A stretch of DNA of 64,000 nucleotides, from contig DXJV01000100.1 in assembly GCA_019056785.1 (NCBI GenBank), positions 4,993-68,992 of the forward strand, written 5' to 3'. A program made the position numbers and the translations under genes. Shown here piece after piece: positions 1 to 64,000 of this stretch (within the stretch, counting starts at the first letter, position 1; every line of letters begins with the position of its first letter). This DNA is from Candidatus Heimdallarchaeota archaeon (GTDB lineage: Archaea; Asgardarchaeota; Heimdallarchaeia; JABLTI01). Under the pieces are notes generated by a model. The model was not told the origin of the DNA and searched no databases. It saw nothing but the letters and a program-made list of their open reading frames with translations.

Positions 1-1290
1 GCGGGAAAAACAACCCTCTATCAGAAATTCTTTTTGAAAAAACCACTCAACCAGCTGAAAAAAATCCCGGCAACAAGAGGAATAGCAAAATACGATCATG
101 ATTTTTTGCGAACAGACTTTCAAATAATCGATGCTGGTGGAGGAAAACAATTCAGGCAAAGTTATATAGGCAATAAAGAGCTTGTCGATGGCTTAAACGC
201 TATTGTCTTTGTGATTGACTCACTCGATGTTCGAAAATTCCAAGAAGTCGCGAACTTTTTCATCATTTGGATTAAAAGTGTTGCAAATTATTTGAAAAAG
301 ACGAAAGCCTATATGTTATTTCATAAAGTAGATCCCGGGACAGAAGCCAAGGTTAAACTGAACTTGCAACAGTTAGCGCCACTAATTAAACCAATCAATA
401 ACTTATATCCAGGAGAGCTTTATACATCAATTACGAGTATTTATAATGATTCTTCGAACCAAATGTTTCAAAGAATTTTATTGGAGCTCTTACCTAGAAA
501 AATGACAACAGCTAAAGCACAAGAAAGACCAGTAGCCACTCCTCAACCAACCATCGCAACGAAGACAACTTCAACGGAAGAAGCCTTTCTCACAAAACCC
601 GTTCATGTTCCTCCACAAAAGACACCTACAGGTATGAAACTCAGTCAACCACCAACAATGCCTTCTAAAACGTCGGCTACGCCAACATCAAAACCAATCA
701 CCACACCACGAAAAACCATCACACCACCTAAAATAACCGGGACAGCAGAAAAGGTAGTGCCACCAAAAATTGGCAAACCATTGACCACAAAGGCAAGAGA
801 AAGCAAGAAAATACAAGAGAAAACCGCAGAACGCCTTTCAGACATTATAGAAGCAACTTTAGATAATAACCCAAATTTCATTGCAATAGCAGTTTATACC
901 GAACAAGCCGAACGCGTTTGTGGTGCAGTTCAACAAGGAAAAGATTCCATTATTTTACAAACAATTGAACAAACCTTGGCGAAAATAAACCTCGGGCAAT
1001 ACATGGACAAACTGGGAAAAATTCGCATTGGTGGAGAAGGGCATATAAAAATAGATGAATACGATATTTTCTTCGAAAAAGTTTCTCCAGAGCATATCAG
1101 TATGGTCATTTGTTTAGGAATAACAGAAGACACAATAAAAAACATCTCGCAAATAAACCGCTATTTAAATCAAGCATTAAGTGTTAAACCCGAAGGTGTA
1201 TCAGAAGAAGCATTTAAACGTGCAGATTTGATGACCGAACTAAAAATGCGGTTGCATCATCGTGGCAAGAGCATCGATGAAATGCTCTGA
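1..1290 (+). CDS. Rag/Gtr-like small GTPase with C-terminal Roadblock/LC7-like domain (5' end runs off the window)
   Basis: Frame 1 is open from nt 1 (AGKTTLYQKF = end of a GxxxxGKT P-loop). DAGGG is G3 (DxxG). HKVD is G4 in the HKxD form typical of Rag/Gtr. A Pro/Thr/Lys-rich linker of about 150 aa follows. The C-terminal ~110 aa (FIAIAVYTEQ...ISMVICLGITED) has a roadblock-like pattern. Confidence 0.6.
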   Translation, partial: AGKTTLYQKFFLKKPLNQLKKIPATRGIAKYDHDFLRTDFQIIDAGGGKQFRQSYIGNKELVDGLNAIVFVIDSLDVRKFQEVANFFIIWIKSVANYLKKTKAYMLFHKVDPGTEAKVKLNLQQLAPLIKPINNLYPGELYTSITSIYNDSSNQMFQRILLELLPRKMTTAKAQERPVATPQPTIATKTTSTEEAFLTKPVHVPPQKTPTGMKLSQPPTMPSKTSATPTSKPITTPRKTITPPKITGTAEKVVPPKIGKPLTTKARESKKIQEKTAERLSDIIEATLDNNPNFIAIAVYTEQAERVCGAVQQGKDSIILQTIEQTLAKINLGQYMDKLGKIRIGGEGHIKIDEYDIFFEKVSPEHISMVICLGITEDTIKNISQINRYLNQALSVKPEGVSEEAFKRADLMTELKMRLHHRGKSIDEML

Positions 1291-1419
1291 AAAAAGAACG
1301 ACGATAAATAAAAACACTTTTTCAATAATTTACTTTTTTAATACTGTAAAAAACCAAAGTGGTTAAAGCAAAAGAAAAAGGAAGAATCTATCCTAAAAAA
1401 AAATGGGGATAGAAATTTC

Positions 1420-2019
1420 ATGAATACTATCATATTGACATACCGTAATAGTACAAAAAGAATTGTTGACTGGCAAACAAATCAAAATACTACAACCAAA
1501 TTTTTACTGTCAATCATTTTTAGCTGCCTAACTGGTATTTTTGCCCAGCTAAGAATCCAATTGCCATTCACCCCAGTCCCAATAACTTTACAGACTGTAG
1601 CTGTTCTAGGGAGCGGCATTTTTCTGGGGCCGATCTTTGGTTGCTTAGCCCAGTTTTTTTATGTTCTCTTAGGCGCATCATGTATAGATTGGTTTACAGG
1701 AAGAACTGGCGGCTTGCAAAGCCTTCTCGGGCCAACCGGAGGGTATTTAATCGGATTTATTATTGCTTCTTTTGCCGCGGGATTTTTAAGAGAAAAACTC
1801 ATTACTGACAAATTTTCTATGAAGAATTTTTTTGTGATACTCATAGCAATTAATTTTTTGCTTATTTATATCCCTGGCATTTTGCAGCTGTTTTTCTGGT
1901 ACAAAATTGCAGAAGGAGAGATTTTAACAATGAATGCCCTGCTTATAAAAGGAGTGATACCATATATATTCGGGGATCTTTTAAAAATAACTGCACTAAC
2001 AATATATGCCAAATTTTGA
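1420..2019 (+). CDS. bioY: BioY family biotin transporter S-component
   Basis: LPFTPVPITLQT...GPTGGYLIGF motifs; polytopic membrane protein of ~200 aa. Confidence 0.8.
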   Translation: MNTIILTYRNSTKRIVDWQTNQNTTTKFLLSIIFSCLTGIFAQLRIQLPFTPVPITLQTVAVLGSGIFLGPIFGCLAQFFYVLLGASCIDWFTGRTGGLQSLLGPTGGYLIGFIIASFAAGFLREKLITDKFSMKNFFVILIAINFLLIYIPGILQLFFWYKIAEGEILTMNALLIKGVIPYIFGDLLKITALTIYAKF

Positions 2020-2023
2020 GAAG

Positions 2024-2163
2024 TGGTGGACCGAGCGAGATTTGAATTCGCGGAAGGAGGGACTCATCCCATACTTCGCTCGCGGCCTTCGGAAGGTCTG
2101 TCGGAAGGTCCGCAACCTTTTCGATTGCAAATCCGACGTTCTACCAGTCTGAACTATCGGCCC
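2024..2163 (-). tRNA. tRNA-Ala(UGC) with two introns, CCA encoded
   Basis: Reverse complement folds as GGGCCGA/TCGGTCC acceptor with the G3:U70 Ala identity pair, D arm GTTC..GAAC, anticodon stem TCGGA/TCCGA with loop TTTGCAA, T arm GCGAG-TTCAAAT-CTCGC, then ACCA. The gene is 140 nt against ~77 nt mature. Inferred introns lie at ~2094..2124 (anticodon loop) and ~2047..2078 (between T-stem and T-loop, 53/54). Junctions are uncertain by 1-2 nt. Confidence 0.8.
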
Positions 2164-2228
2164 ACACTAGGGTTTCATTTGCACATTTCTTCTTTTTTAA
2201 TTTTTTTATTGGGTTTTATTTGTTTGCC

Positions 2229-3071
2229 TTATTGGGTAAACGTCAGCATAATAAGAACATTCAACAAGATATGCCCTACGGTTACACCGAGTATATTTTC
2301 CGTGTCATAAACAGTTACCCCTGTCAATAAGCCCGAAATGGTGATAAAAGCAATAGCATTTGCCGGACCAATGATATCCGGCAACCAAGTAAATTCAAGC
2401 CAATGACCACCCATCCAAACAGCAAATTGAAGGAGAAAAGCACCTCCATTGCCAATGTGGAGGCAATATTTCCCTTTTCCAAAAATCAAAGAGCCTTTCG
2501 CACGCATAAACTGTAATTGTACAAAAGCTTTCGAATAATACTCAAACATAATGATATTAAGTGAAATGAATAGCAACTCACGAAACCAGGCAGCTGGCGA
2601 AGAAAGATGAAAATACCAAAAATTCAAGCTAATAACACCACTAACATTCTTATTTGCAAGGGTTATCCATGGATAGAAGATTCCAGCATGCATCCCAAGC
2701 CCTTGTAATAAGCTCTTAAGTATGTTCTTTTTTGAGAGGCCTGAGGGGGTACCAATAAAAAACGTCTGAATTTTTCTCATTCGAACTAATTGATTAATTA
2801 CAAGATACAAAACCGGTAAAACTGTGAAACAGAAAAACGTGAGTGTTGCATGGAAGTAATAGTCACTCCCCATAATTTCAAATTGAGTAAAATAACTCAA
2901 TGGAAAGAAAATAAGTAATGCTAACACCCCCACAATTAAATTCGCTCTAATCGCCTCTTTTATTGTAAAATAGGTCTGAGAAGTCGAAGGAGCAGCAAGT
3001 TTTTTTGAAGAACTTTTTTGATGGGCTTTCGAGGAGGGGGGAGTTTTTTGACGCAAGAACTCACAACACAA
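2229..3071 (-). CDS. polytopic membrane protein, possibly CPBP-type intramembrane protease family
   Basis: Multiple hydrophobic segments. Weak FRELLF and GHILLNV (HxxxN) motifs resemble CPBP family motifs. The family call is tentative. Confidence 0.45.
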   Translation of the reverse strand: MCCEFLRQKTPPSSKAHQKSSSKKLAAPSTSQTYFTIKEAIRANLIVGVLALLIFFPLSYFTQFEIMGSDYYFHATLTFFCFTVLPVLYLVINQLVRMRKIQTFFIGTPSGLSKKNILKSLLQGLGMHAGIFYPWITLANKNVSGVISLNFWYFHLSSPAAWFRELLFISLNIIMFEYYSKAFVQLQFMRAKGSLIFGKGKYCLHIGNGGAFLLQFAVWMGGHWLEFTWLPDIIGPANAIAFITISGLLTGVTVYDTENILGVTVGHILLNVLIMLTFTQ

Positions 3072-3160
3072 ATTAGTGGGTATTTCAACAGCAATATTTC
3101 TGCTATGATTATTACACGAAGAATTATTAAATCTCTTTGTTTTATCTTTGTTGAACTGGT

Positions 3161-4570
3161 ATGAATGCTAATCTCGATCAAATAGATTTGCCGGAAATCT
3201 TCCGAAAGGGAGTTATTTGTGATTTACACGCGCACTCTTCTTATGCCGGGGGCACGGGGAGTTTGGATCTTACCACAGCTGTTAAAAACATGCCAAAAAA
3301 GGGAGTCCAGATCATCGGAACAGGTGATTGTTTATATCAACCATGGTTAAAAATCCTTAAGGAAAAGTTGCACGATCCAGATGAAAATGGTACCTTTGAA
3401 TTAAAAGAAGCAGAGCAGGAGAAAGATCTCGAAACAAAATTTATCCTCCAAACAGAAATTGCTATAACTGCTCCTGTGGGGGTGGCACGGAAAAATGTCC
3501 ATTGCGTCTTCCTTTGGCCAAATTTCAATGCAGTAGATGAAGCAATAAAATTACTCGAGAAATTCGGCGTGAAAAATTCGATGGGGAGACCATTTCTTAC
3601 AAACAAAAATCGCGAAGAAACATCAGATAGAATAACAAAATTACTCGAGATTGACCCATTGGTGGAATTCTTTCCGGCACATATCTTAGTTCCTCTGGGA
3701 ATTTATGGACCAAAACCAGCTATAACTTTTATGGACGACTTTTTCGGAGAAGTAGCATCACGCATCCATGCATTTGAAACAGGATTAAGTGCAGACCCCT
3801 CAATTTGTACCCTTATTCCTGAATTGGACAAACTAACACTGATTTCAAATAGTGATGCTCATTCAGCAGCACTAAACAGACTCGGGAGAGAATTAACAAG
3901 CTTCGATTTGAAGAAAGTCAGTTATGAAGAATTAATTGACGCAATTAGAAACAATCGTGTTTGTTATACGGCAGAATTTCACCCTTCAGAAGGGCGCTAT
4001 TTCTTAACAGGCCACAGGGGAGGGATTCGAGGGCATAAAGAAGATGAATTTTGTGTCTTCTCACCGGACAGGGCGCCAAAAAATATGGTCTGCCCAATTT
4101 GTGGGCTAACAATGAGTCCGGGTGTGCTACAACGAGCCATTGAACTTTCCAAAGCACAAGGAAGTGAACGGGAATTCGGGACCTTCTACGGGCAAAAAAG
4201 AAACTTCTACCGGATGGTGCCACTTGTAGAGATACTTGCCCATGCTCTCGGAATAAAAAATTCAAACACAAAGAAAGTCACCTTGTTCTATGAGATCATA
4301 ATTGGAGCAATTGGTAACGAGTGCAAACTCTGGACAACAAAACTAGAGGTGCTAACAGAGATATTGCAACAATTGGTTGATGAACCCATTGCTAGGGCGA
4401 TTATAGAAGTTCGGAAGGGGAACTTTTGCTTTTCACCACCAGGATTTGATGGCACATATGGTGAGCTAATAATAGGTGAAACATCAAACTACCAAAACAT
4501 CGAAATTATCAAAGGAGCAAAAAGAGCCAGTCAACAATTAACACTAGACCGTTTTTCTACAAAAGATTAG
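3161..4570 (+). CDS. endonuclease Q (PHP-domain, zinc-finger DNA repair endonuclease)
   Basis: DLHAHSSYA and TGDCLYQPW N-terminus; GLSADPS; SNSDAHS...LGRE; CPICG zinc motif; C-terminal PPGFDGTYGEL. These match the remembered Pyrococcus EndoQ layout. Confidence 0.75.
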   Translation: MNANLDQIDLPEIFRKGVICDLHAHSSYAGGTGSLDLTTAVKNMPKKGVQIIGTGDCLYQPWLKILKEKLHDPDENGTFELKEAEQEKDLETKFILQTEIAITAPVGVARKNVHCVFLWPNFNAVDEAIKLLEKFGVKNSMGRPFLTNKNREETSDRITKLLEIDPLVEFFPAHILVPLGIYGPKPAITFMDDFFGEVASRIHAFETGLSADPSICTLIPELDKLTLISNSDAHSAALNRLGRELTSFDLKKVSYEELIDAIRNNRVCYTAEFHPSEGRYFLTGHRGGIRGHKEDEFCVFSPDRAPKNMVCPICGLTMSPGVLQRAIELSKAQGSEREFGTFYGQKRNFYRMVPLVEILAHALGIKNSNTKKVTLFYEIIIGAIGNECKLWTTKLEVLTEILQQLVDEPIARAIIEVRKGNFCFSPPGFDGTYGELIIGETSNYQNIEIIKGAKRASQQLTLDRFSTKD

Positions 4571-5942
4571 AACTGATTTTGCGTAGGATTAGTGGAAGAC
4601 GAAGCATATATTGCTCAAGTTCAGCACTCGTTTTTTCAACGATGGCAACTAAAACGGACTGAGATGTAAGAGGGGATAAAAGCAACAACTTACCTTTTTG
4701 AGGGATCTTTTTCAGTGTATGTTGTGTTGCAGGGATTAAATCTAAGAGCTTGGATAATTCGAGATTTTTCGCCAAATCAATCCAATCATTACTGTCAGCA
4801 ATCCGCTTCATGGTGAAAAAGCGACGGGAAGGGGTAACAATGCCAGTTAGAATGACATCCGGGTAAATGGCCATGAAAGTATGCATTTGTGCTTCTTCTC
4901 GCGCCCATTTATTCACCGAGTCACCAAAAGAAAGACGTGAGGTTTGTCGCTGCAAACTTTGTTGGCTAGAGGAATGCTTCTGTCGCTCCTTCATCTCAAG
5001 TTTTAGCCGTCCGAGAAGTTCATATTCAGGAACAGTATCTAAACCTTGTAAAAGCTTAAAAGGAAGGTTCTTGTTGCGAACGCCCTCGTACCTACTGATT
5101 ATCTTTTGCTGGATGTTTTTAAGATCCTCATCAAGAGCCAGACCTTTGATGACCTCAAAAACATAAAAATAACCGTCGCTGTTATACACTATAAAACGGT
5201 AGTTTTGGGTAGTTACTTCTTCCAGGTCGCCGGGGTCAAGATTTTTAATTGATTTACGAAGACCAACCAGAAAATTGGTTAAAATCTGAAGATTAAATAA
5301 TGGTTTTCCCCGTGAGAATTCAGAATATTCAAGTTTGCCTGATTCGTCAATGATAAGAACACCATCTATGCCAGCAAGTTTTTTCGTCAGCTGTCGGACT
5401 TCCTCACTCGCATTAGATTCATCCATGATCTTCTTATAAGCATTTGAAAGCTGCATATCCATCGCACGAAACTTTATAATGCGTTGTCCAAGCTTTTCAA
5501 AATCAGGTGTTTCTGTTAAATTAGAAATAAGAAGGGTATTATCCATATTTATTTTCTGAGCGCCTATAAAGCGAGCTATTAATTTATTAATCACAACCTG
5601 ATAAGAATCGATATTCGGGGTAATTTTTTCGACCCAGAAGATATAGAAGAAATTATCGCGAAATTCAAACAAAAAGATTGAGTTTGTAGTTTCTATGGTT
5701 TTAATGTTTTCTTCACTAATAACTTCAGCAAGAGATTGTAAACTGGAAAGCAACCCGGCTAAAAGGATGACGTCAAACTGCTCCTCTGTAAGAAATTCAA
5801 TATATTTTGGCAGGCCACTCTCTTCAAGGACAATAAAACCTCGGAGAGCGTTGTAGAATTGCTCAATTAGATGGCTTGTTTCAAATTCCTCTATCGTGAT
5901 TTTAAAACCCACCGGATTTTTCTCTAAAAAAATGATTGGCAA
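4557..5942 (-). CDS. hypothetical protein with three tandem roadblock/longin-like modules
   Basis: Repeated pattern: GFIVLEESGLPKYIEF...FLFEFRDNFFYIFWVEK, then IDGVLIIDESGKLEYSEF...YRFIVYNSDGYFYVFEV, then VILTGIVTPS...LLLLSPLTSQSVLVAIVEK. Confidence 0.5.
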   Translation of the reverse strand: MPIIFLEKNPVGFKITIEEFETSHLIEQFYNALRGFIVLEESGLPKYIEFLTEEQFDVILLAGLLSSLQSLAEVISEENIKTIETTNSIFLFEFRDNFFYIFWVEKITPNIDSYQVVINKLIARFIGAQKINMDNTLLISNLTETPDFEKLGQRIIKFRAMDMQLSNAYKKIMDESNASEEVRQLTKKLAGIDGVLIIDESGKLEYSEFSRGKPLFNLQILTNFLVGLRKSIKNLDPGDLEEVTTQNYRFIVYNSDGYFYVFEVIKGLALDEDLKNIQQKIISRYEGVRNKNLPFKLLQGLDTVPEYELLGRLKLEMKERQKHSSSQQSLQRQTSRLSFGDSVNKWAREEAQMHTFMAIYPDVILTGIVTPSRRFFTMKRIADSNDWIDLAKNLELSKLLDLIPATQHTLKKIPQKGKLLLLSPLTSQSVLVAIVEKTSAELEQYMLRLPLILRKISSNLL

Positions 5943-6069
5943 AACGGCTTTTAATCACTCTCATTACGGCAAAAGACCGATAAGAAGATTGAAGGATTAA
6001 GAATTAAAGCGTAAATTTATTAACAATTTCTGTCAGTCCTTCTGCTAAACTAATTTCAAGGTAGCAACC

Positions 6070-7194
6070 ATGACTCCCCAAGCAGAAGAAATTAGCGAAT
6101 TATTGAAAAAGTGCGTTCAATGTGGCTCATGCATTTTAATTTGCCCAATCTATCGAGCAACAAAGGAAGAACAATTTTCGCCACGAGGAAAACTCTATTA
6201 CTTAAAATTAAAAGATGCTTTTCCTGAGAAATTCGACGCTGAGCTTGATAAAGAATATGCAAAAACGATTTTTACTTGTACGATGTGCGGCAGATGTGTA
6301 GAAATATGCAGCTCTGAAACACAATTGACAGAGATCTTCAAAGAAGAACGAAAAGAATCCGTTGAGCAATTCCCAAAACTCCTCACAATAGCTGAAAATG
6401 TCGAAGAAGAAAAGAATGTATATGGTTTAGATAACGAAATGCGTACCGAATCATGGACAATGGAATTGTATGACGATTTTCCAGATATCGATGACCGTAT
6501 TTATGAGGAAGGAAAAACGGCTGAGACGATCTTTTTCGTTGGCTGCCTAATGTCTTACCGGAGTAGGCACACAAATGTTTTACGCGCCATTTTAAAAGTG
6601 TTAGAATATCTAGGCGAAGATTACATCCTCTTGGGAGGGGAAGAATTCTGTTGTGGTCATCCACTCGATCTTATTGGAAAAACAAACGAAGCAAATAAAT
6701 TGCGAGAACATAACACAAGCATTTTCACGAAAATCGGCGCTAAAACGATCATTACTGATTGCCCGGGTTGTTTAGAAGCTCTTCTTGAGCACCATCACAT
6801 TGACCCTTCTGTTCGAGTGCTTCATGTGACAGAATTTTTCGATGAGAAAATCGACTCTGTTCCAAACAAGTTGGATATAACGCTCAAGTATCATGACCCT
6901 TGCGAACTCTTCCGGAATGATGGGGTGACTGAAGCACCGCGCTCGCTGATGAGAAAAATAGGCATCAATATTGTCGAAATGGAACCTTCTTGCTGTGGTG
7001 GGGGTGGGATGTTACGTGTAACAGATGAGAAGCTGGCAAACAAGATAATGGAGGATCGCATTATAAAGGAGAAACTCAAAGAAGAAGATACTTGTGTAGT
7101 TACTTGTTGCCCTTCGTGCTTGGAACAATTTGAACAAAATGAAATAACAACGAGCGACATAGCAGAATATCTCGTAAAAGCGCTCAATCTCTAG
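6070..7194 (+). CDS. (Fe-S)-binding protein, GlcF/HdrD-like (2x 4Fe-4S plus CCG domains)
   Basis: CVQCGSCILICP and CTMCGRCVEICS ferredoxin motifs; two Cys-rich CCG-type segments (FCCGHP, SCCGGGG, CCPSC). Confidence 0.8.
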   Translation: MTPQAEEISELLKKCVQCGSCILICPIYRATKEEQFSPRGKLYYLKLKDAFPEKFDAELDKEYAKTIFTCTMCGRCVEICSSETQLTEIFKEERKESVEQFPKLLTIAENVEEEKNVYGLDNEMRTESWTMELYDDFPDIDDRIYEEGKTAETIFFVGCLMSYRSRHTNVLRAILKVLEYLGEDYILLGGEEFCCGHPLDLIGKTNEANKLREHNTSIFTKIGAKTIITDCPGCLEALLEHHHIDPSVRVLHVTEFFDEKIDSVPNKLDITLKYHDPCELFRNDGVTEAPRSLMRKIGINIVEMEPSCCGGGGMLRVTDEKLANKIMEDRIIKEKLKEEDTCVVTCCPSCLEQFEQNEITTSDIAEYLVKALNL

Positions 7195-7206
7195 GAGGAA
7201 TAAAAG

Positions 7207-8598: not shown

Positions 8599-8784
8599 AG
8601 AATTACAAATAACTCTTCCTTTTTTTCTTGAGCTAGGATTGCTTGGAGTATAAAGAAGGTCCGAAGCCAGAAAAAGAGCTCGGCAATAAGGTATTTGAAA
8701 GAAGAAACAAGACATAGTATAAATAAGCGCTCATAAGAAAAAATAATATTAGAGCAAACGAATTTTCAATGTAGGAGATTTACT

Positions 8785-32486: not shown

Positions 32487-32502
32487 AGTTTCCTATCCAT
32501 TT

Positions 32503-33793: not shown

Positions 33794-33798
33794 AATAT

Positions 33799-44163: not shown

Positions 44164-44194
44164 ATGCTTTTTCCCTATCTTTTCTTCTTGTGCA

Positions 44195-44235: not shown

Positions 44236-44252
44236 TTTATGTACGGTAAATT

Positions 44253-45986: not shown

Positions 45987-45988
45987 AG

Positions 45989-46097: not shown

Positions 46098-46179
46098 AAT
46101 CAGTAATTGGAATTGATGTTATGTCCTTTTTAAAAATATGGATTCTAATTATAAATAAATTATTTGCAAATGTTCCTTT

Positions 46180-46203
46180 GTTCGAATCCGCTCACGTCCG
46201 CCA
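46180..46203 (+). other. tRNA 3' fragment (T-loop, T-stem 3' strand, acceptor 3' strand, discriminator, CCA)
   Basis: G-TTCGAAT-CCGCT-CACGTCC-G-CCA. No matching T-stem 5' strand (AGCGG) lies upstream. The acceptor pairs with 42987..42993. Confidence 0.5.
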
Positions 46204-55542: not shown

Positions 55543-56229
55543 ATGGCAATCAATACGCGGCGTCGTGCGCCGGCAATTAAACTGAAGATCCGTGACCTTC
55601 TTGAAGGCGAATTTGTCACTAACGCTGACGGTTCCAAAGCCCTTCACGTTAAAACGGATGATTTGTTACGACGGGCACGCATTCTAGGGGAGATTACCGG
55701 TAAAACCGTTGTAGAGCCGGAAGAAACAGTCATTCTCGAGATTACTGATAACACAGGAACCATTAAAGTGAAAGGAGGGGGCTCTAATTGGTCATCTGAC
55801 CTTTATCTGGAATTAAAAGAATTGAAGGAAGGGATTTTAGTTGATATTGTAGGCTTAGTGCGAGAGGGTGTTGAAGGGCAAATTTACCTTGATGTTGAGC
55901 TCTGTTTGCCTATTAAAGACCAATCGATCACCTTATTACGGGATCTCGAGATTACGAAATATTACACACGTAAAGGCCTTACCAATCAGGCCTCAGAAGG
56001 CTTAGCAACAGCAAAGAAAGAGCAAGAAACCCTCTCACGAAGCGATGAAATCAAGGATCAGATACTCGCGCTCTTAAAACAAGAAGAATATCTCGAAGAA
56101 GGTTGTTCTTTCGATGAAATTAAGCGACTGTTAAATCTTACAACAAAAGAACTCGAGCCTGAACTTCGCTCTCTTCAAAGTGACGGCGAAATTTTCGAGC
56201 CCATTCCTGGGACCTTTAAATACGTGTAG
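55543..56229 (+). CDS. OB-fold protein with C-terminal winged helix (RPA32/Stn1-like layout)
   Basis: N-terminal beta-rich OB-like region (RILGEITGKTVV...IKVKGG...VDIVGLVRE). The C-terminal ILALLKQEE...FDEIKRLLNLTTKELEPELRSLQSDGEIFEP is wHTH-like. Confidence 0.45.
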   Translation: MAINTRRRAPAIKLKIRDLLEGEFVTNADGSKALHVKTDDLLRRARILGEITGKTVVEPEETVILEITDNTGTIKVKGGGSNWSSDLYLELKELKEGILVDIVGLVREGVEGQIYLDVELCLPIKDQSITLLRDLEITKYYTRKGLTNQASEGLATAKKEQETLSRSDEIKDQILALLKQEEYLEEGCSFDEIKRLLNLTTKELEPELRSLQSDGEIFEPIPGTFKYV

Positions 56230-56659: not shown

Positions 56660-57961
56660 TTATTTCTTAGTTTTTGCGTGTAAGAGCATTAACGTTCGCG
56701 CGGTGAGATCACTGATGATTTCATTATAGTTAGCAAAGGCTTCTAGTGGGGTATCATAATGGGAAAAATAGGAATGCACCTCGCCTGGGCCGGCATCTGC
56801 CTGGGAGATATAGTAGAGATGGTCGGAGGTGGTGAGCATCCGCCAAATTCGCAGGAGTGTCGGATTATTTAATTCCTTAATGGGGGCTTCGAGGAATTTC
56901 TGATCATCAAATGAGATGTGTTGTAATGGATTTTTAAGCCAGGCCCCCAGGTCACGATCGTCTGCCCAGCTGATTGTCGAAAAGTCGTCGATTGCTATCT
57001 TTCCTTTTGGCGAGTATTTTTCTGCCACTTCACCGGGCGTGAGGAACTCCAGATGTTCATACGTGAATACTTCACGAGGGAGATGTTTTAGGAACTCGAA
57101 AATCCCACTTTCAGCCCAGAGGTGTTCTCCCAGTGACTCATAGTCCATGAAAATATTGATGCAATCGCCAGGAGAGTTTGCCAACCAAGAGGCATATTTG
57201 TCTGCATAGAGAGGGTATTCTTCCCAGCGCCCGGAGCCAAATCGAAATGCAATATCATCACTTAGCTGGTAGTTTCGCAAGAGTACCTTGAGGTTAGGGG
57301 CTATTACACTTTCAAACACGTAGTTTGGTGATTGATTGTTGGCTGGCAGAATATGTTCTATTCCTTCTCCAAGTATCGTCTTAAACCCCAAGGCAGCCAC
57401 TTCCTTCATTATGGCATTATTTAAAATAAGTTCAGTATTTCGAAATGTTGTTGGTTTCCAGTGGAAGAGTTCTTGCATGATTTCGGAGTGTTGTTTCACC
57501 TGCTCGCGGAATTCCGTTTTGGTAGTGCCGTAAATTGCTGTTAAGGAATGATAATAGGTTTCCCCTAAAAATTCAACGCAACCGGTTTGTGCCAATTGTT
57601 TAAAGCTATCCACAACATCCGGTGCATAGCGCTCAGCTTGTTCCAGCATTGTCCCCGTTAGACTGAAAGCAATTTTTACTTGCCGAGCATCGTTCCTAAA
57701 TTCATCAATGGCTTTCAACCAGACATCATTTGCCGGGAGGTAACATTTCTTTGCCACCCGTTGGAAAACATCTTTATTAAGTTCTTCATTGAAATATAAT
57801 GCCTCGAGCTTCTCGATAGATTGCTCTTTGAAAAATCGGTCCCGACGGAAATTCTGGTTTAAACGATAGGGTTGATGAACCTGGAAATAGAACACAATCG
57901 ATGTCAAACGAATCACCAAGATAGTCACTTTTCCTCGGGATATTAAAGTTATCTTTTGCAT
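56660..57961 (-). CDS. glycoside hydrolase family 57 protein
   Basis: FYFQVHQPYRL N-terminal motif and the GH57-like remainder. The real start is probably downstream of the track start. Confidence 0.7.
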   Translation of the reverse strand: MQKITLISRGKVTILVIRLTSIVFYFQVHQPYRLNQNFRRDRFFKEQSIEKLEALYFNEELNKDVFQRVAKKCYLPANDVWLKAIDEFRNDARQVKIAFSLTGTMLEQAERYAPDVVDSFKQLAQTGCVEFLGETYYHSLTAIYGTTKTEFREQVKQHSEIMQELFHWKPTTFRNTELILNNAIMKEVAALGFKTILGEGIEHILPANNQSPNYVFESVIAPNLKVLLRNYQLSDDIAFRFGSGRWEEYPLYADKYASWLANSPGDCINIFMDYESLGEHLWAESGIFEFLKHLPREVFTYEHLEFLTPGEVAEKYSPKGKIAIDDFSTISWADDRDLGAWLKNPLQHISFDDQKFLEAPIKELNNPTLLRIWRMLTTSDHLYYISQADAGPGEVHSYFSHYDTPLEAFANYNEIISDLTARTLMLLHAKTKK

Positions 57962-58035: not shown

Positions 58036-60309
58036 CTAAAGTGAAGAGGAAATAATACCAATAAGGACGACGAAATCTTTTATAGGTAATTCATCAGCTT
58101 TCTGCCCCTGAGAAATTTTTGAGTGTTGAGTCTTGCAAAAACTTGCAAAATTAAAGAGATCAGTCGCCAGTTGTTGCACCTCACCTTTCAGGGTATCAAG
58201 GACGGTTGCAAAATTCTTCGCAGACTTCTTGGCAAATTTCTCAGCCTGAGCATATAATTTCTGTGCTCGACTACGATCTCTAATTTGTGCATATTCCTGG
58301 GCTTTAATAATCGCTTGACAAGACTGGAAGAAGAGCATCGCAGCGGTAGTATGGATGTGCTTCTTATTAATATATTCCCAATCGACAATGTCCTCTGAGA
58401 GGACTTGGTATTTGTTTTTATGGTCTAAAATTGCTTTATAATGGGACGCCAATCGCTGCCAGATGGTAATAAGAGAGTCGAAGAGAGCGCCATGGCTTTC
58501 AATAATCAGAGAGGAGATTTCAGCGGGAATCTGCTTGAGGTCCAGAGAAGAAAGAACATCGGGTAAGCTCCGGAGTAAATAGCGCGCAAAGAAGTATTGA
58601 TTCCCTGTATGAAGAATGTTTGCCTCTTTAAGATGGCTTTGGATGAACGTTTTGCTGAATTCTTCTTTTACAAAGAATTTCAGCTCATCCAACACCTTTC
58701 CTGTAGGGAGATTCTCATAAGCCTCTTTTGCACTTAAGAAGCTCTTCACAAGTAAGCAGAGACCTTTTGTAGCGTTTTTCTCCCGCAAGCCTTTTAACCG
58801 GGTGGCTTCGCATGTGATGATATTCAATAATACCCTGCTCTTAGAGATAAGCATTGTACGGTCATCAATGAAAGGAGGCATAAGTAAAATGGACATCAAA
58901 ATATCCTGGATCTTTTCAGTTTCTGTCTCACAAAAAGCATTTTTAATTGTAAGGTCCTGTTCATCGTCTTGCCAGGGCAAATTAAGGAACGCACGAGCAA
59001 TGTTATCCACCCGTCCTTTGAAGATGACCCCAAGGCGCCGGAACCCTTTTTGAATTTCTTTACGAATCCGCTCGGCAGTTAATTTCTCATGTTTGCTTAA
59101 GGTAGTAAGGTTCTCAAGGATAAAGCCCACGGTGTTCAAAAACTCGGATTGATTATAAAATTCGATGTTAGTAAGGGGCGCTTCAGAAAGACTGGTAAGA
59201 CTTTTGATCTTCGCCCGCAGCTCTTTCTGGGGGAGGTCAGTGGAAGACAATTCAAGAATTGAGCAGGTAAGAGCGACCAGAGTGGAAAAAATCTCGGTAA
59301 AGTCAATATTAGTTCGAATTTCTTCTACCAGAGCTTGGGAGGAGCTGGATTCCAGAGGAACCTCATTTAATTCTGCAAGGCTTTCATTAAAAGCTTTATT
59401 GGCCTGATTAAATAGCTTATAAGCCCTTTGATGATTGTTGTGTAAGAGAGCATTGATTGCCAGCTCCAGAAAATGGGAGCCTGTGGCGAGTTTTGCCTGC
59501 CCACGGCAAAGAGCAATTTCAAAATCGATAGTCAGGAAGAGGCTTGGGTCGACGGGGTTTTTTTCCAGAGCAGCTTTTGCCTCGGTGAAAAGTTTATCGG
59601 CTTTATTATAAATATAAAATTTGAGGAGGTTGTCATTCCACCAAAAGTCATCTTTGGCAATATCAAGCACACGCGAATAATAAATCATATAGAGTGTCCC
59701 TTTATAGCGCAAGTTCTTGATCTTTCGCTCGAGCAACAACTCTTTGTGCTTTTCTTTTTTAGGTTTTTGGAATGATTGAAGACTACTATAAATATTCGAC
59801 TCGAAATTCATCTTACCAATTGTAGTCATTATTTTAAGGAATTCCTCGTCAAAATGCAGTTCTTTTCCCAGGCTGAACAGGATGATTTCAGACAAGTCGT
59901 GCACTTGTGCAGAATACTCATCAATGACAGAGAGGTCCTTTGGTTCCTTAACAAGGCCTTCCAGAATGGTCTCATAATATAATAAAGAGAGAATGCGTGC
60001 AAAAAATTCTTGTAAGATAGATTGATCCCGGGAATGGACCACAACTTCAAACGCCTTTGGATTGTTTTTCAGTGCCTTGATGTTTTCACTCAAAGTCTCT
60101 TGATATTCATAACGTTCCAAACGAGAAGTAGTAGCAATCTGATTTAACGAAGCAGCACACTCCTTAGCAAAGGGTGGCCAAATTTTACAATAATCATCAA
60201 TCGTATCATAATCTGCACGGGAAAAAATCTCCTGTCGTAACGCATCATAATTGACCAGCCGATCAAACAATTGTTCTTTTAGAACATCAAAGAGCTCCAC
60301 TTTTGACAT
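58036..60309 (-). CDS. large all-alpha hypothetical protein (757 aa)
   Basis: Long uninterrupted ORF with helical-repeat-like composition; no catalytic motif recognised. Confidence 0.55.
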   Translation of the reverse strand: MSKVELFDVLKEQLFDRLVNYDALRQEIFSRADYDTIDDYCKIWPPFAKECAASLNQIATTSRLERYEYQETLSENIKALKNNPKAFEVVVHSRDQSILQEFFARILSLLYYETILEGLVKEPKDLSVIDEYSAQVHDLSEIILFSLGKELHFDEEFLKIMTTIGKMNFESNIYSSLQSFQKPKKEKHKELLLERKIKNLRYKGTLYMIYYSRVLDIAKDDFWWNDNLLKFYIYNKADKLFTEAKAALEKNPVDPSLFLTIDFEIALCRGQAKLATGSHFLELAINALLHNNHQRAYKLFNQANKAFNESLAELNEVPLESSSSQALVEEIRTNIDFTEIFSTLVALTCSILELSSTDLPQKELRAKIKSLTSLSEAPLTNIEFYNQSEFLNTVGFILENLTTLSKHEKLTAERIRKEIQKGFRRLGVIFKGRVDNIARAFLNLPWQDDEQDLTIKNAFCETETEKIQDILMSILLMPPFIDDRTMLISKSRVLLNIITCEATRLKGLREKNATKGLCLLVKSFLSAKEAYENLPTGKVLDELKFFVKEEFSKTFIQSHLKEANILHTGNQYFFARYLLRSLPDVLSSLDLKQIPAEISSLIIESHGALFDSLITIWQRLASHYKAILDHKNKYQVLSEDIVDWEYINKKHIHTTAAMLFFQSCQAIIKAQEYAQIRDRSRAQKLYAQAEKFAKKSAKNFATVLDTLKGEVQQLATDLFNFASFCKTQHSKISQGQKADELPIKDFVVLIGIISSSL

Positions 60310-60454
60310 GGTTATTACGCACCCATCGCACTAAACCCTATCTTCCAAAGGAAGGATACCAAATGGATAACTGATGCTTTATCCTTAAACTCTTAATGCT
60401 TTCCTTACATTAAACTGTTTTTCAATCGGCAAAGAAAAAAAGAGTGGAGGACGA

Positions 60455-61351
60455 TTATTTGGCCCCAAAATCGGCAATAAACGCCACGCCATGAGGTCCC
60501 GTATGGGCAGAAATGGATGTTCTGCTGAGAACTTTGCGAAGGTCTAAGGGAGGGAGAATCTCATTGATCAGTTGCTCGAGCTCCGTTGCGAGCGGTTCGT
60601 TGCCGGTATGCACAATACAAGCTTTGCGTGGAAAGAGTTTGAGATTGTTCGTGGCATCATTGATCAGAGCAAACAACCCCTTCCGAGTATCCCTTACTGT
60701 TCCATAAGGCTCATTTCGCCCTTCAGCATTAACTTTGACCAAAGCCATTTTCTTTAAGAATTTCCCGAGAAGGTACTTAGCAATACTAATCCGTCCGCCC
60801 AGATGGAGATATTTTAAAGATTGGAGAAACAGGCGCGTTTGGACCCTGCTTACATACTCCTGTAAACGCGTGGCAATTTCGTTTGCCGGGAGACCCTGCT
60901 TTGCCAAATCGATTCCTTCTTCCAGGATGAAAACTTCAGAGTACGAGGCGTTTAGAGAATCGACAAGATAAACGGGAACATCTGGATGGGAGGATTTGAT
61001 GAAATTCGCTGCCAACCGAGCGCTGTTATAGGTGCCGCTCAATTGTGAACTTATCGTGACGACAACAATTGCGTTCTTTCCTTCTGCAATCAATGCCTCA
61101 TAGGCTTTCACAAATTGTTGGGGAGACGGTTGCGCCGTTTTTGGGATAAACTTACGGTCTGAAACAAAGCGAGCATAATAGGCTTCGAGGTCAAATTGCT
61201 CGTCCTCCTTAAATGTCCGGTCATCAAAGGTGATATTAAGCGAAACAACTTGCACGCCCAATTCTTTCGCATACTCCCATGGAATATCGGATGCGCTATC
61301 AATTACAAAACCAATCGTCATAACAATGTCTTCCTCAAAAAAGAAAAACAC
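60455..61351 (-). CDS. DegV family fatty-acid-binding protein
   Basis: IGFVIDSASDIP N-terminus, ~280 aa. The true start is likely MTIGF. Confidence 0.8.
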   Translation of the reverse strand: MFFFFEEDIVMTIGFVIDSASDIPWEYAKELGVQVVSLNITFDDRTFKEDEQFDLEAYYARFVSDRKFIPKTAQPSPQQFVKAYEALIAEGKNAIVVVTISSQLSGTYNSARLAANFIKSSHPDVPVYLVDSLNASYSEVFILEEGIDLAKQGLPANEIATRLQEYVSRVQTRLFLQSLKYLHLGGRISIAKYLLGKFLKKMALVKVNAEGRNEPYGTVRDTRKGLFALINDATNNLKLFPRKACIVHTGNEPLATELEQLINEILPPLDLRKVLSRTSISAHTGPHGVAFIADFGAK

Positions 61352-61383
61352 GTGCAGTAATAAAGGTTTTTTGGAGGAGAAGA

Positions 61384-61578
61384 CTAGCGATTTGCTTGGA
61401 CGATTTTTCGCTCAGAGACAACCAAAACTTCACCACAGACGGAGCACCTGAATAGAACTCGAGGATGGACGTACTTGCCAACCTTTAATGACACAAGTTT
61501 CCCGCAATAGGGACAGAACCGCAGTTTTTGCAGCTCTTCAGCAACTATTCGTTGATATTCAAGGGACAGACTCTTCAC
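61384..61578 (-). CDS. small zinc-ribbon protein
   Basis: CPYCG...CSVCG, two CxxC pairs; 64 aa. Confidence 0.45.
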   Translation of the reverse strand: MKSLSLEYQRIVAEELQKLRFCPYCGKLVSLKVGKYVHPRVLFRCSVCGEVLVVSERKIVQANR

Positions 61579-61736
61579 CCTTCAGGAGTATGAAAGAACT
61601 ACCTACAAACACCTTAAGTATAGAATAAAAAAAGCAACTCGAGGGTGGGGGAGAGACAAGAAAGTATTCAGAGTGAAAAGAAATGGAGCAAAGAATAAAA
61701 AATCAATAGAGAACAGAAACAGAAGGGGAGAAAGAA

Positions 61737-61813
61737 TGGCAGGCGTGAGGGGATTTGAACCCCTGGCCACTTAGTTAAAAGCCAAGTGCTCTACCTAGCT
61801 GAGCTACACGCCT
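61737..61813 (-). tRNA. tRNA-Lys(UUU), no intron, CCA encoded
   Basis: Reverse complement: AGGCGTG-TA-GCTC-AGCTAGGTA-GAGC-A-CTTGG-CTTTTAA-CTAAG-TGGCC-AGGGG-TTCAAAT-CCCCT-CACGCCT-G-CCA. Confidence 0.9.
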
Positions 61814-61967
61814 TTGTTTTTATTGGCTCTTTTTTGCTTGCTTTTCCTTTTTAAATTTGCTGTTTTGTTTATTTTCTCGCCACCGTTTAAAAGGCCTCTA
61901 CAGAATTTTTTTTAATTTAAAAAAGAATGAAGATACACGGTTCAAATGAGGAGTTGAATAAAAAAAA

Positions 61968-63677
61968 ATGAATGAAGCTGAAGAACGAGAAATAATGTTA
62001 TTGTTAACACAATTGAAGGAAGCAGAAAATATCGACATCCGTGCCGGTGCAGCTGAACAACTGGGACGAAAAACGCTTTTACTCGACAAGATCGTGCCTG
62101 CTTTGAAGGAGGCTTTGAATGATGAAAATTGGCTCGTACGGGTAAAGGTTGCTCAAGCGCTTGGTATGCTCGGGAAAGTTGCCCTTCCAGCCTTAGAAGC
62201 CCTGCGAGAGGCGATGAAAGAACCACGGAATAAAGCAAAACGCGGAGCATTTTATGAAGTTGTTCAAAAACTTGAGAACTTACAGATAACATTAGAAGAA
62301 GTTGGTGAAGTAGAACAACAACCAAGTACAGTAGTTAAAGAGGAAGCAGCACCCAGCCAGCCAATTAAACCCGCCGAGGAAGAAAAAGGCGAAGAGGAAG
62401 AAAAGGCACAGGAACAAAAAGAGGAACTGGAAAAACCGGAACCGACGCCAGCAGAGGTTGAAAAAGTAGCCGAAGAAAAAGTGTCGCCACCATCTGAAGT
62501 AACAGCACCGGTACAGGAGAAGCCGCCTGAGGAGCCACCAACAGAAGAAACTGCAAAAGAAGAAGAAGCCGAGCCGGCAAAAAGCGAGGACGAAGCAGAG
62601 GTGATTGAAGAGGCAGTAGAAGATGCTGTCGAAGATGCAATAGAAGATGCCATTGAGGAAGTAACTGACCAACCTGTTGAAGAAGATGTTGTTGAGAAGG
62701 TAGCGGAAGAAATCGCAGAGGAAGTAGTGGAGATCCAGGAACCGTCTGTGGAAGAGCAACAACCAGAACAACTTGAACCAGAAGAAAAAGGCGAAGAGGA
62801 AGAGAAACAAGCGCCTCCAAAAGAAGCAGAGAAAAAAGAGGAGGAGAAAACAACAATTGAAAAGGAACAACCGGAAATAGAACCAACTGAAACCAAAGAA
62901 GGAGCCACTACACCGACAGAAACAGCAAAAACAACAACAACAATTCAAGAGGAAATGATAAGCGAAAAACAGCCGGTTATTAAGACAGTTGAAGAAAAAG
63001 CACTCGAGGAGATAAAGGAACCAGTGCCATTGGATGAAGTGCTGGAGTTCGAAGATGAGACGAAAACAGACGACGAGAAAAAAAAAACGATTTTGACTCT
63101 TCCGGAGGAACTGCCTGAACAAGAACTACCTGCAAAGAAATACGAACAAATTATTGTGAAAGTTATTCTTCTTGGCGATAAAGCGGTTGGAAAGAGCAGC
63201 TTACGAACAAAGTACTGTGACAAACAACGCAAGGACGAATTTCGAGAAACTCTCGGAGCAGATTTTGTATCCAAACACCTCGAGAAGGAAGGGAAACACT
63301 ATGCAATTCAGGTATGGGACCTCGCCCCTGGGCGAAAAATCGACGACCTCCGAGAAACATTTTACAAAGGAACAAAGGGGGCAGTTCTTGTCTTTGATGT
63401 TACCGACCGGGCCACCTTAACAAACTGTAAGAACTGGCTGAAGGAGGTAAAAGAGCAAGAGCCAGAAAGCAGCTTCATTCTTGTTGGAAATAAAATAGAC
63501 AAACGTATTGCTGGTGAAGAGGGGCAAGTAACAACTGAGGAAGGCAATGCATTTGCACAAGAACTCTCGCTCGAAGCGGGGAGAACCGTCCCTTATGTGG
63601 AAGTTTCGGCAAGTACAGGAGAACAAGTCGAACACGCTTTTGAGCTGCTTCTAAGCCAGATACTTGAGACAAATTAA
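61968..63677 (+). CDS. HEAT-repeat N-terminus, ~300-aa acidic disordered linker, C-terminal Rab/Ras-like small GTPase
   Basis: DIRAGAAEQLGR...NDENWLVRVKVAQALGMLG (PBS-lyase HEAT-like repeats); Glu/Pro/Lys-rich middle; GTPase KVILLGDKAVGKSSL (G1), VWDLAPG (G3 variant), VGNKIDK (G4), EVSAS (G5). Confidence 0.7.
   Translation: MNEAEEREIMLLLTQLKEAENIDIRAGAAEQLGRKTLLLDKIVPALKEALNDENWLVRVKVAQALGMLGKVALPALEALREAMKEPRNKAKRGAFYEVVQKLENLQITLEEVGEVEQQPSTVVKEEAAPSQPIKPAEEEKGEEEEKAQEQKEELEKPEPTPAEVEKVAEEKVSPPSEVTAPVQEKPPEEPPTEETAKEEEAEPAKSEDEAEVIEEAVEDAVEDAIEDAIEEVTDQPVEEDVVEKVAEEIAEEVVEIQEPSVEEQQPEQLEPEEKGEEEEKQAPPKEAEKKEEEKTTIEKEQPEIEPTETKEGATTPTETAKTTTTIQEEMISEKQPVIKTVEEKALEEIKEPVPLDEVLEFEDETKTDDEKKKTILTLPEELPEQELPAKKYEQIIVKVILLGDKAVGKSSLRTKYCDKQRKDEFRETLGADFVSKHLEKEGKHYAIQVWDLAPGRKIDDLRETFYKGTKGAVLVFDVTDRATLTNCKNWLKEVKEQEPESSFILVGNKIDKRIAGEEGQVTTEEGNAFAQELSLEAGRTVPYVEVSASTGEQVEHAFELLLSQILETN
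62330..63060 (+). repeat. GAA/GAG-rich low-complexity coding tract
   Basis: Encodes EEKGEEEEK, EDAVEDAIEDAIEE and similar. It generates long spurious ORFs in other frames and on the opposite strand. Confidence 0.8.
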
Positions 63678-63781
63678 AACTCCTGTTTCCTTTTTTCTTT
63701 TTTTGGGTCGTCCCCCTTTTTTCCCCCTCGAGGTGCACTTTCACCAACTCACTCACAATTTGAGACTTCGTAAAGAGTCCC

Positions 63782-64000
63782 TTACATGTGAATCGTCTTT
63801 TTATAAGGAGAAACTTTACTAGGAATTAAGCAAAAACATCGGAGGAGGAAAAAATGATAGCGAAAAGAGAAAAACCACCACCAAAGAAAATACTTCGCAA
63901 AGAGCAAGAAAAGATCCGATTCAACTTTGTGCTCCACTAAGGTATGAACTAAACGGTCAGAAAGAACCACCGAGAAAATAAGAAGTGACCAGCCAATAAG
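63782..64000 (-). CDS. possible 3' end of a membrane-protein gene entering from beyond the window
   Basis: The minus-strand frame is open from nt 64000 to the stop at 63782 and has hydrophobic/aromatic-rich composition. Weak. Confidence 0.2.
   Translation of the reverse strand, partial: LIGWSLLIFSVVLSDRLVHTLVEHKVESDLFLLFAKYFLWWWFFSFRYHFFLLRCFCLIPSKVSPYKKTIHM

Follow-up and report, generated by a model that had tools for sequence, protein, structure and literature searches.

CTCGAG as a highly iterated palindrome in an order-level clade of Heimdallarchaeia

The 64,000-nt stretch of DNA presented above (hereafter the window) contains the six-base palindrome CTCGAG exactly 52 times, about six times as often as its composition predicts. 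CTCGAG is a highly iterated palindrome (HIP), and the pressure behind it acts on the DNA itself, not on protein, codon usage or a longer repeat. The excess is found in every reading frame and between genes, and it is a trait of one order-level clade of the Asgard class Heimdallarchaeia, to which the window probably belongs. Individual copies are continually created and lost, and both lineages of the window's subclade stand at the same high steady state.

Palindromes are depleted in most prokaryotes, and a strong excess of one is therefore rarely met. One well-studied case, HIP1 (GCGATCGC) of cyanobacteria, reportedly the subject of Robinson et al. in 1995, has been unexplained for some thirty years. 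CTCGAG constitutes a second, independent case, with another word and from another domain of life, and the lineage that carries it lies near the stem of the eukaryotes. The turnover of its copies favours models of continual replenishment, which are disfavoured for HIP1. The excess appears to be unreported, its kind being already known from cyanobacteria; in the library searched we found no paper that joins CTCGAG with Asgard archaea or describes an archaeal HIP, which is not proof of novelty. On the practical side, a clade-specific 6-mer at 0.3-1.3 copies/kb is a cheap marker for binning metagenome-assembled genomes (MAGs), for contamination checks and for flagging foreign inserts, and it supplies a concrete predicted methylation motif for long-read data that hold these archaea.

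Excess over composition, codon usage and neighbouring words

An earlier note on this DNA, made by eye, had put the number of copies at about 52 and the zero-order expectation on the order of 10; direct counting returned the same 52 (0.81/kb), and the computed zero-order expectation is 9.0. Markov models of order 1, 2 and 3 predict 8.3, 11.7 and 18.2 copies. The maximal-order model (order 4) predicts 30.6, a value inflated because CTCGA and TCGAG are themselves mostly CTCGAG, and even against it the 52 copies stand at z = 5.8. One hundred dinucleotide-preserving shuffles yielded 8.6 ± 2.7 copies, with a maximum of 18, and none reached 52. We then ranked all 2,080 hexamers (reverse complements merged). 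Under the order-1 null CTCGAG was first with z = 15.2, followed by the coding word GAAGAA at 9.0, and under a codon-aware null applied to every hexamer it was again first (z = 9.4, runner-up 4.8). The fold excess is 6 by composition and 3.4 by the codon-aware null. The hand tally was therefore not inflated, and the excess survives both Markov and codon-shuffle expectations. In keeping with the HIP class, CTCGAG is a short palindrome that far exceeds what composition, Markov models and codon-aware shuffles predict, and no other hexamer deviates as strongly.

By our crude gene calls (59 longest non-overlapping open reading frames, ORFs) the window is 89% coding, and of the copies 47 are genic and five intergenic. 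A synonymous-codon shuffle within genes, which leaves all protein sequences and the codon usage of every gene unchanged, gave 14.0 ± 3.5 genic copies in 1000 trials (maximum 27), and shuffling codon order gave 13.2 ± 3.5. Leu-Glu is the main carrier of the word (31 of the 47 genic copies) and not the cause of its excess. Translational selection for the codon pair CTC-GAG could claim those 31 copies, found among 164 Leu-Glu dipeptides where 10 were expected. We nevertheless regard it as very unlikely, as the dipeptide itself is not over-used (164 vs 154 expected) and the other frames are enriched as much or more: copies read as CTC-GAG (first frame) number 31 against 10.0 expected, those read as xCT-CGA-Gxx (second frame) 9 against 3.1, and those read as xxC-TCG-AGx (third frame) 7 against 0.8. 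Intergenic DNA (6.8 kb, 33% GC) holds 5 copies against about 0.55 expected, and relatives of the window show the same all-frame and intergenic pattern. The earlier note had argued on the same grounds that this is no Leu-Glu codon-pair effect, assigning the copies at 3554, 7334 and 8361 to their phases and those at 10427, 25677, 61638 and 63727 to intergenic DNA; the argument and all of these assignments stand, and a fifth intergenic copy lies at 61458.

The unit under pressure is the bare hexamer. We found no flanking consensus within 15 bases on either side of the copies, where base frequencies are at background, and no preferred 8-mer palindrome or extension of CTCGAG; preferences at positions -1 and +6 are not symmetric. 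The tetramer TCGA as a whole is at only 1.27x in the window, and the other NTCGAN palindromes were counted at 31 against 33.7 expected (TTCGAA), 4 against 5.3 (GTCGAC) and 25 against 15.3 (ATCGAT). One-mismatch neighbours had been described by the earlier note as near or mildly above expectation, in agreement with our counts for CTCGAA/TTCGAG (48 vs 33.4), CTCGAC/GTCGAG (14 vs 13.2) and CTCGAT/ATCGAG (20 vs 22.6). All nine one-mismatch neighbour pairs lie within about ±30% of codon-aware expectation except CTAGAG/CTCTAG, which is part of a general avoidance of CTAG, and other codon pairs with a CpG junction are at expectation. Gaps between copies are Poisson-like (coefficient of variation 1.07), the largest, 5.95 kb, being typical of random placement, and neither regular spacing nor a defended maximum gap was seen within the 64-kb window.

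These results leave next to no room for chance, for a compositional, assembly or cloning artefact, or for a dispersed repeat or mobile element whose remains carry CTCGAG. The small size of the window, and nothing else, speaks for such an origin. Chance and composition are excluded by the shuffles (0/100 for dinucleotides, 0/1000 for codons) and by the maximal-order z of 5.8, and assembly or cloning artefacts by the recurrence of the excess in independent JGI, ENA and NCBI assemblies. A dispersed repeat (REP, MITE or CRISPR-derived) was rejected because the flanks are unrelated and copies sit in frame within unrelated conserved genes. As HIPs do, CTCGAG is scattered through unique DNA, within genes in every frame as well as in intergenic stretches, and does not form part of any longer repeat.

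The window includes two AT-rich islands, and the earlier note was right that both lack CTCGAG. This absence carries no weight, however, as 0.33 copies are expected there by composition and about 2.1 at 6.3-fold excess (P about 0.12), and we rejected it, as underpowered, as a sign that the word is confined to native DNA.

Clade distribution, turnover and candidate origins

The window encodes a methanogen-type seryl-tRNA synthetase (SerRS), Gtr1/RagA-like and Ras/Roc small GTPases, MCH and an endonuclease-Q-family (EndoQ) protein, and its nearest database proteins are labelled Heimdallarchaeota or Asgard group. With SerRS and EndoQ as anchors, the same order of relatives was obtained: environmental contigs at 98-100%, one relative at 85-86% protein identity (JGI contig Ga0366834_1000290), and a tier of genomes at about 64-81% (SerRS 67-81%, EndoQ 64-75%) that includes JABLTI01, after which identity falls sharply to 50% or less for Heimdallarchaeaceae, Hodarchaeales and all others. 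A metagenome scan yielded a single contig, which belongs to the same organism as the window. JABLTI01 gives its name to the GTDB order o__JABLTI01, which is Gerdarchaeales (PMC11193907). Going by these identities rather than by a phylogeny, the window probably comes from a Heimdallarchaeia-class Asgard archaeon of this order.

To follow the word across lineages, we scanned a genome collection by SerRS alignment, looked up the encoding contigs and compared about 20 kb per genome, expressing counts as ratios to the order-1 expectation. The window stands at 6.3x (52 vs 8.3). Its species-level relative L047 (72% nucleotide identity, 41.9% GC) reaches 7.8x (28 vs 3.6), with CTCGAG again first of 2,080 hexamers, and the part of L050 that does not overlap L047, on the same contig, 6.1x (12 vs 1.96); together L047 and L050 carry about 1.05 copies per kb. 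Among more distant clade members the excess is weaker, at 3.45x around SerRS (46 vs 13.3 in 164 kb at 32-35% GC, still the top palindrome) and 3.7x around EndoQ (30 vs 8.1 in 84 kb), and density is only 0.28-0.36 per kb. Outside the clade it is close to nil: 1.3x in Heimdallarchaeaceae-like loci (44 vs 33.4 in 427 kb), 0.6x in one Hodarchaeales locus (1 vs 1.6) and 0.77x in pooled methanogen and Altiarchaeota loci (26 vs 33.8). Synonymous shuffles agree, with 26 genic copies against 6.6 and 2 intergenic against 0.16 in L047, 43 against 17.2 and 3 against 0.68 in the wider clade (group C), and 44 against 32.7 in the Heimdallarchaeaceae control. The excess is shared by the clade, as in HIPs, and absent from the neighbouring lineages tested. 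The earlier note had suggested repeating the count in related genomes; it recurs there, and the note's reading of a HIP-like over-representation at the level of DNA is borne out by a word that tops both nulls, enters all frames and intergenic DNA, lacks a flanking consensus and is inherited by relatives.

One locus outside the clade departs from its neighbours. In L037, from a Methanocellales MAG (JAWCMA010000011.1), we counted 9 dispersed copies against 2.8 expected (uncorrected P = 0.002), and a second Methanocellales locus, L038, has 1 against 3.2. With 46 loci tested, the L037 count may have arisen by chance, or it may reflect a sporadic excess of independent origin.

Individual copies turn over rapidly. 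The window and L047 align over 21.3 kb, in which they have 8 copies in common, 17 occur in the window only and 18 in L047 only, and 4-fold degenerate sites are essentially saturated (identity 0.347). Retention of CTCGAG is 32%, compared with 15% for all hexamers and 9% for hexamers containing CpG. This excess retention appears to be accounted for by conserved amino acids together with a high usage at equilibrium. Of 42 Leu-Glu positions conserved between the two genomes, 12 are written CTCGAG in one and 13 in the other, and jointly 6 where 3.7 are expected (Fisher p = 0.14). Among distant clade members, CTCGAG stands at only 9 of the 186 hexamers orthologous to window sites, in a scattered pattern. 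About 30% of conserved Leu-Glu positions are written CTC-GAG against 6% predicted from codon usage, which by derived arithmetic corresponds to an odds ratio of about 6.6 and a log-odds bias of about 1.9. Comparison with the roughly 98%-identical L048 and L057 (7.6 kb) showed 5 shared copies, 3 in the window only, where the relatives read CTTGAG, CTCAAG and CTCGGG, and none in the relatives only; three against none is too few to polarise gain and loss, and the outgroup is saturated. Positions are thus random and turnover fast, which points to a genome-wide pressure at the DNA level and away from site-specific function. A weak, word-specific pressure across the genome fits these data; individually functional sites do not.

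What could exert such a pressure? Specificity for six palindromic bases would imply a sequence-specific dimeric protein, and the source of the bias may be a long-resident enzyme that recognises CTCGAG. Among the means by which a protein of this sort could make its own site commoner, methylation tied to repair has the best documentation. Our favoured candidate is a DNA methyltransferase, either solitary or derived from a restriction-modification (R-M) system, whose methyl mark would steer mismatch or deamination repair towards the methylatable allele and so act as a ratchet; the copies would then be a by-product or a density signal and not functional one by one. We put such a methylation-linked repair bias at somewhat below an even chance. 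A ratchet of methyl-directed mismatch repair has been proposed by Elhai for cyanobacterial HIPs, where every alternate HIP of 5-6 bases is accompanied by a methyltransferase that recognises it and densities plateau at about 1/1000 nt (PMC4390886). The densities of the window and of L047 with L050 match that plateau and are consistent with methylation. CTCGAG is also an exception within a restriction-exposed genome, in which ordinary palindromes are depleted (in the window CTAG is at 0.41x, GGCC at 0.65x and GATC at 0.68x, with 1 GGATCC against 10.9 expected and 3 TCTAGA against 14.2).

Several points weigh against this reading. No gene for a DNA methyltransferase, restriction enzyme or Vsr- or Mig-type repair enzyme was found in the window, where Pfam covered most of the 59 genes and NCBIfam and PADLOC most of those left unannotated. 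A regular-expression scan for 5-methylcytosine (m5C) and N6/N4 methyltransferase motifs over the window and loci L001-L049 likewise found none, its one hit being a false positive in a flavoenzyme. Canonical methylases of the XhoI/PaeR7I type make N6-methyladenine, which offers no route through deamination repair, and many archaea have no MutS/MutL, so that a methyl-directed ratchet would need another nicking system. The T:G to C:G signature of Vsr-type repair is also missing: CTTGAG/CTCAAG number 29 against a codon-aware 34.9, are at 0.87-0.91 of Markov expectation and, at 0.83-0.91 overall, are no more depleted than in the non-enriched Heimdallarchaeaceae control (0.85). Differences between C and T at CpG are only about 2-fold raised between the 98%-identical strains, which is weak evidence of m5C. 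Finally, in persisting across an entire order the CTCGAG excess resembles HIP1, as a selected word, more than the sporadic alternate HIPs, which Elhai regards as by-products.

That last resemblance leads to direct weak selection on copy number, in which CTCGAG would be the word of a conserved chromosomal protein and about one copy per kb would be held with positions irrelevant. Candidate roles include strand discrimination or nicking in repair, recombination or DNA-uptake and self-recognition signals, and nucleoid organisation. An excess inherited across the clade with graded strength resembles HIP1, for which selection was inferred (PMC5861425); the raw retention of copies in L047 is well above that of other hexamers, density in the window's subclade is about 1/kb, and no single neighbour is depleted, as if gains came from all of them. 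We nonetheless find selection doubtful, if quite possible. Positional conservation appears to vanish once amino acids and equilibrium usage are corrected for, spacing is Poisson-like and without regularity, with gaps of up to 6 kb, and the low density in distant clade members means that no fixed density is defended. Six bases are moreover short for a specific uptake or recombination signal, and a candidate binding protein is not at hand.

Fast turnover and random positions could also be produced by a context-dependent mutation or repair bias without methylation, stemming from a sequence-preferring polymerase or repair enzyme or arising as a by-effect of a shift from AT to GC. The excess is indeed strongest in the higher-GC subclade (6-8x at 40-42% GC vs 3-5x at 31-36%), and among the window's genes are those for a Y-family polymerase, a nuclease of the EndoQ family and an Lhr helicase, all of them generic repair genes and without a link to CTCGAG. 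Such a bias is improbable in our view: it would have to single out one hexamer while neighbour pairs, other NTCGAN words and CpG-junction codon pairs stay at expectation, and codon-aware shuffles already take up each gene's codon usage and GC content at third positions. We know of no mutational process with six-base palindromic specificity that lacks a sequence-specific protein.

Methylation-linked repair thus remains the candidate that we favour. More broadly, CTCGAG may be the recognition word of a conserved, order-wide system for DNA marking, repair or chromosome organisation, an independent archaeal counterpart of HIP1, a proposal that we advance with more doubt than confidence. If it is true, comparing HIP1 with CTCGAG, as to whether a methyltransferase is present and whether sites are conserved or turn over, could decide between selected signals and repair by-products.

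Three observations on base and word usage stand beside these arguments. Between the window and L048/L057, C/T differences amount to 2.06% at CpG and 0.9-1.25% elsewhere, and are highest at TCG (2.5%); CpG observed/expected in the window is 0.87. L047 avoids partly different palindromes (GATC 0.37x, GGCC 0.42x, AGGCCT 0 vs 5.1, ATGCAT 0 vs 5.9), so restriction pressures seem to come and go as the excess of CTCGAG persists. Palindromes built on CCGG are in milder excess in the window (CCGG 1.5x, ACCGGT 16 vs 5.8, GCCGGC 11 vs 5.4, CTCCGGAG 4 vs 0.4), and GCCGGC is found in L047 at 8 vs 2.2.

The copies in the window and their surroundings

Of the 14 example coordinates in the earlier note, ten are exact and four were off by 1-9 nt (12926, 13126, 13361 and 54773 should read 12920, 13125, 13359 and 54764). 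From the left, two first-frame copies at 3554-3559 and 3644-3649 lie in the EndoQ-family gene 3161-4570(+), the former being CTCGAG at the same position in L050; at one of these two sites L057 (98% identical) has CTCGGG. The FAD-binding oxidase gene 7207-8598(+) holds one copy in the second frame (7334-7339) and one in the third (8361-8366), and an intergenic copy shared with L047 (10427-10432) sits 15 nt upstream of the ORF 9951-10412(-). Five copies fall in the Lhr-type helicase gene 11231-14146(-): 11890-11895 (second frame), 12920-12925 and 12962-12967 (first), and 13125-13130 and 13359-13364 (third), with those at 12920 and 13359 shared with L047. The Y-family polymerase gene 14611-15780(+) has a second-frame copy at 14885-14890, and third-frame copies occur at 17280-17285 in the M1 peptidase gene 15764-17677(-) and at 17947-17952 in the PUA/TGT_C2 gene 17694-18221(-).

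The next stretch overlaps L048. Within the TYW2/Trm5 gene 18257-19123(-), the copies at 18486-18491 (third frame) and 19046-19051 (first) are shared with L048, and that at 18988-18993 (second) reads CTCAAG in this 97.8%-identical relative. The first-frame copy at 21123-21128, in the SerRS gene 19656-21242(-), is CTTGAG in L048, and both copies of the gene 21300-22247(-), at 21756-21761 (first frame) and 22070-22075 (second), are shared with it. Two first-frame copies shared with L047 follow, at 23914-23919 in the UDP-glucose dehydrogenase gene 23230-24666(+) and at 24790-24795 in the MCH gene 24667-25620(+); the intergenic copy 25677-25682 lies between convergent genes.

Further along are a first-frame copy at 28253-28258 in the flavoenzyme gene 26489-28354(+), a second-frame copy at 28693-28698 in the AlaX-like gene 28500-29795(+), two first-frame copies (29897-29902 and 30008-30013) in the gene 29792-30619(-), and another, 31741-31746, in the FAD oxidoreductase gene 30925-32229(+). 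The gene 35395-36363(+) carries three, at 35480-35485 and 35945-35950 in the second frame and at 35773-35778 in the first. First-frame copies also lie at 37654-37659 in the QueC gene 37330-38118(-), at 40710-40715 in the gene 40296-41246(-), and at 46662-46667 and 47271-47276 in the gene 46218-47411(-) for a protein with a double-stranded RNA-binding domain; the gene 38115-38702(-) has a third-frame copy at 38299-38304.

In the right-hand part of the window nearly every genic copy is in the first frame: 52541-52546 in the thioredoxin-like gene 52007-53440(+), 53688-53693 in the gene 53460-54008(+) (shared with L047), 54186-54191 in the OsmC gene 54057-54509(-), 54764-54769 and 55091-55096 in the gene 54623-55396(+), which also holds a second-frame copy at 54738-54743, then 55735-55740, 55945-55950 (both shared with L047) and 56152-56157 in the gene 55543-56229(+), and 57803-57808 in the GH57 gene 56660-57961(-). 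The last seven are identical in L049, which is 99.92% identical to window positions 58,844-64,000 and has three more copies in the 2.4 kb past the window's end. They comprise first-frame copies at 59728-59733 in the gene 58036-60309(-), at 60575-60580 in the DegV gene 60455-61351(-), and at 63003-63008 and 63279-63284 in the HEAT-Ras/Roc GTPase gene 61968-63677(+), together with intergenic copies at 61458-61463 and 61638-61643, between the DegV gene and tRNA-Lys, and at 63727-63732, 50 nt past the stop of 61968-63677.

Three DNA-repair genes, those for the EndoQ-family protein (3161-4570), the Lhr-type helicase (11231-14146) and the Y-family polymerase (14611-15780), lie near each other and are conserved in relatives. 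The endonuclease Q family comprises nucleases for deaminated bases, and nothing ties the three genes to CTCGAG. Eukaryote-like proteins are encoded in several places: a Gtr1/RagA-type GTPase (1-1290), the HEAT-repeat and Ras/Roc GTPase (61968-63677), the double-stranded RNA-binding-motif protein (46218-47411) and a protein with an RPA C-terminal-like domain (55543-56229). In the relatives L050, L052 and L054, genes for Roadblock/LC7, LAMTOR5-like and SMCR8-like proteins stand beside the RagA-like gene.

The first AT-rich island (32.49-34.96 kb) is a genuine insertion. An 87-nt direct repeat, 83% identical, occurs at 32400-32486 and 34876-34962, both copies ending in a TAG stop, and the 3' end of the small 2x[4Fe-4S] ferredoxin gene 32226-32486(+) is thereby present twice. 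At synonymous sites the in-frame copy is richer in AT, and the displaced copy has native-like, GC-rich codons, which suggests integration of an element of about 2.5 kb at the 3' end of the ferredoxin gene, with a replacement end brought along; no integrase was seen within 32400-34962. A 72-aa ORF in this island, 32596-32814(-), weakly matches a Type I R-M specificity domain (Pfam Methylase_S, E = 4.6e-4, just under the cut-off; phrog_2668, E = 2.7e-5) and may be a degraded piece of an HsdS gene, although CTCGAG is not a site that Type I systems recognise. The second island (43000-46200) has 28-30% GC and ORFs of 144, 85 and 577 aa, for which we found no Pfam, PHROG or PADLOC match, and no direct repeat was found flanking it.

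Gene order differs between the window and its 85% relative, L047 joining the homologue of window 53.1-57.9 kb to that of 25.6-17.7 kb. In L051, positions 1-9000 (the non-syntenic left part) encode a LAGLIDADG-like protein, a DEAD helicase and unknown proteins and have 1 CTCGAG, against 7 in the 12-kb syntenic part; this segment may be a variable or defence island.

Comparison with known systems

CTCGAG is the site of R-M systems of the XhoI, PaeR7I, BsuMI and TliI type, TliI being a CTCGAG-specific enzyme in archaea. Genomes as a rule avoid the site of a restriction enzyme that resides in them (PMC4687349). CTCGAG is enriched in the window, the opposite sign from avoidance driven by a resident Type II system, which we therefore rejected, and the DNA searched yielded no genes of this type.

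Uptake signal sequences (USS) of Pasteurellaceae and DNA uptake sequences (DUS) of Neisseriaceae are 9-12 nt long and non-palindromic, have a flanking consensus and often form inverted pairs at terminators. They resemble CTCGAG as clade-specific short words in excess, at about 1/kb in genic and intergenic DNA, but CTCGAG is a bare palindromic 6-mer without a flanking consensus, and we rejected an uptake signal of this type for want of the 9-12-nt non-palindromic core and its consensus. Strand-polarised words such as Chi or KOPS/AIMS were rejected as well, since CTCGAG is its own reverse complement and cannot carry orientation.

Another parallel is found in very-short-patch repair. Dcm/Vsr of E. 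coli is said to alter the abundance of CCWGG and CTWGG (Bhagwat and McClelland, 1992), and an archaeal T/G glycosylase, Mig.MthI, has reportedly been found beside an m5C methyltransferase (Horst and Fritz, 1996). The likeness would lie in a methyltransferase palindrome raised above expectation by sequence-specific T:G correction, and Mig.MthI provides an archaeal precedent for m5C combined with T/G repair. The CTCGAG excess is nevertheless much larger than the modest effect on CCWGG, and a depletion of CTTGAG/CTCAAG was not seen.

The alternate HIPs of exceptional cyanobacteria (GGCGCC, GCCGGC and GCsGC; Elhai 2015, PMC4390886) are palindromes of 5-6 bases at about 1/1000 nt, a density nearer than that of HIP1 to CTCGAG, they may be by-products of a resident methyltransferase and methyl-directed repair, and single copies are not necessarily functional. 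They differ in being sporadic and confined to single strains, each with an identified methyltransferase, whereas the CTCGAG excess is order-level.

HIP1 itself has 8 bases to the 6 of CTCGAG and belongs to a different domain of life. Its excess of 15-300x (PMC5861425) is far above the 3-8x of CTCGAG, and its sites are reported to be conserved (PMC5861425), whereas for copies of CTCGAG the conserved amino acids and the usage at equilibrium appear to explain what conservation there is. Cognate methyltransferases are known for HIP1 (CGATCG, GATC) and none was found for CTCGAG in the DNA searched; a periodicity of 10-90 kb belongs to HIP1, and CTCGAG was seen over 64 kb only. Recent preprints reportedly tie HIP1 to transformation and recombination. 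The two words are nonetheless alike in what defines the class: each is a short GC-rich palindrome and the most over-represented word of its genome, dispersed in unique sequence through genes in all frames and intergenic DNA, inherited across a large clade at a density of the order of one per kb, with a cause contested between selection and biased repair.

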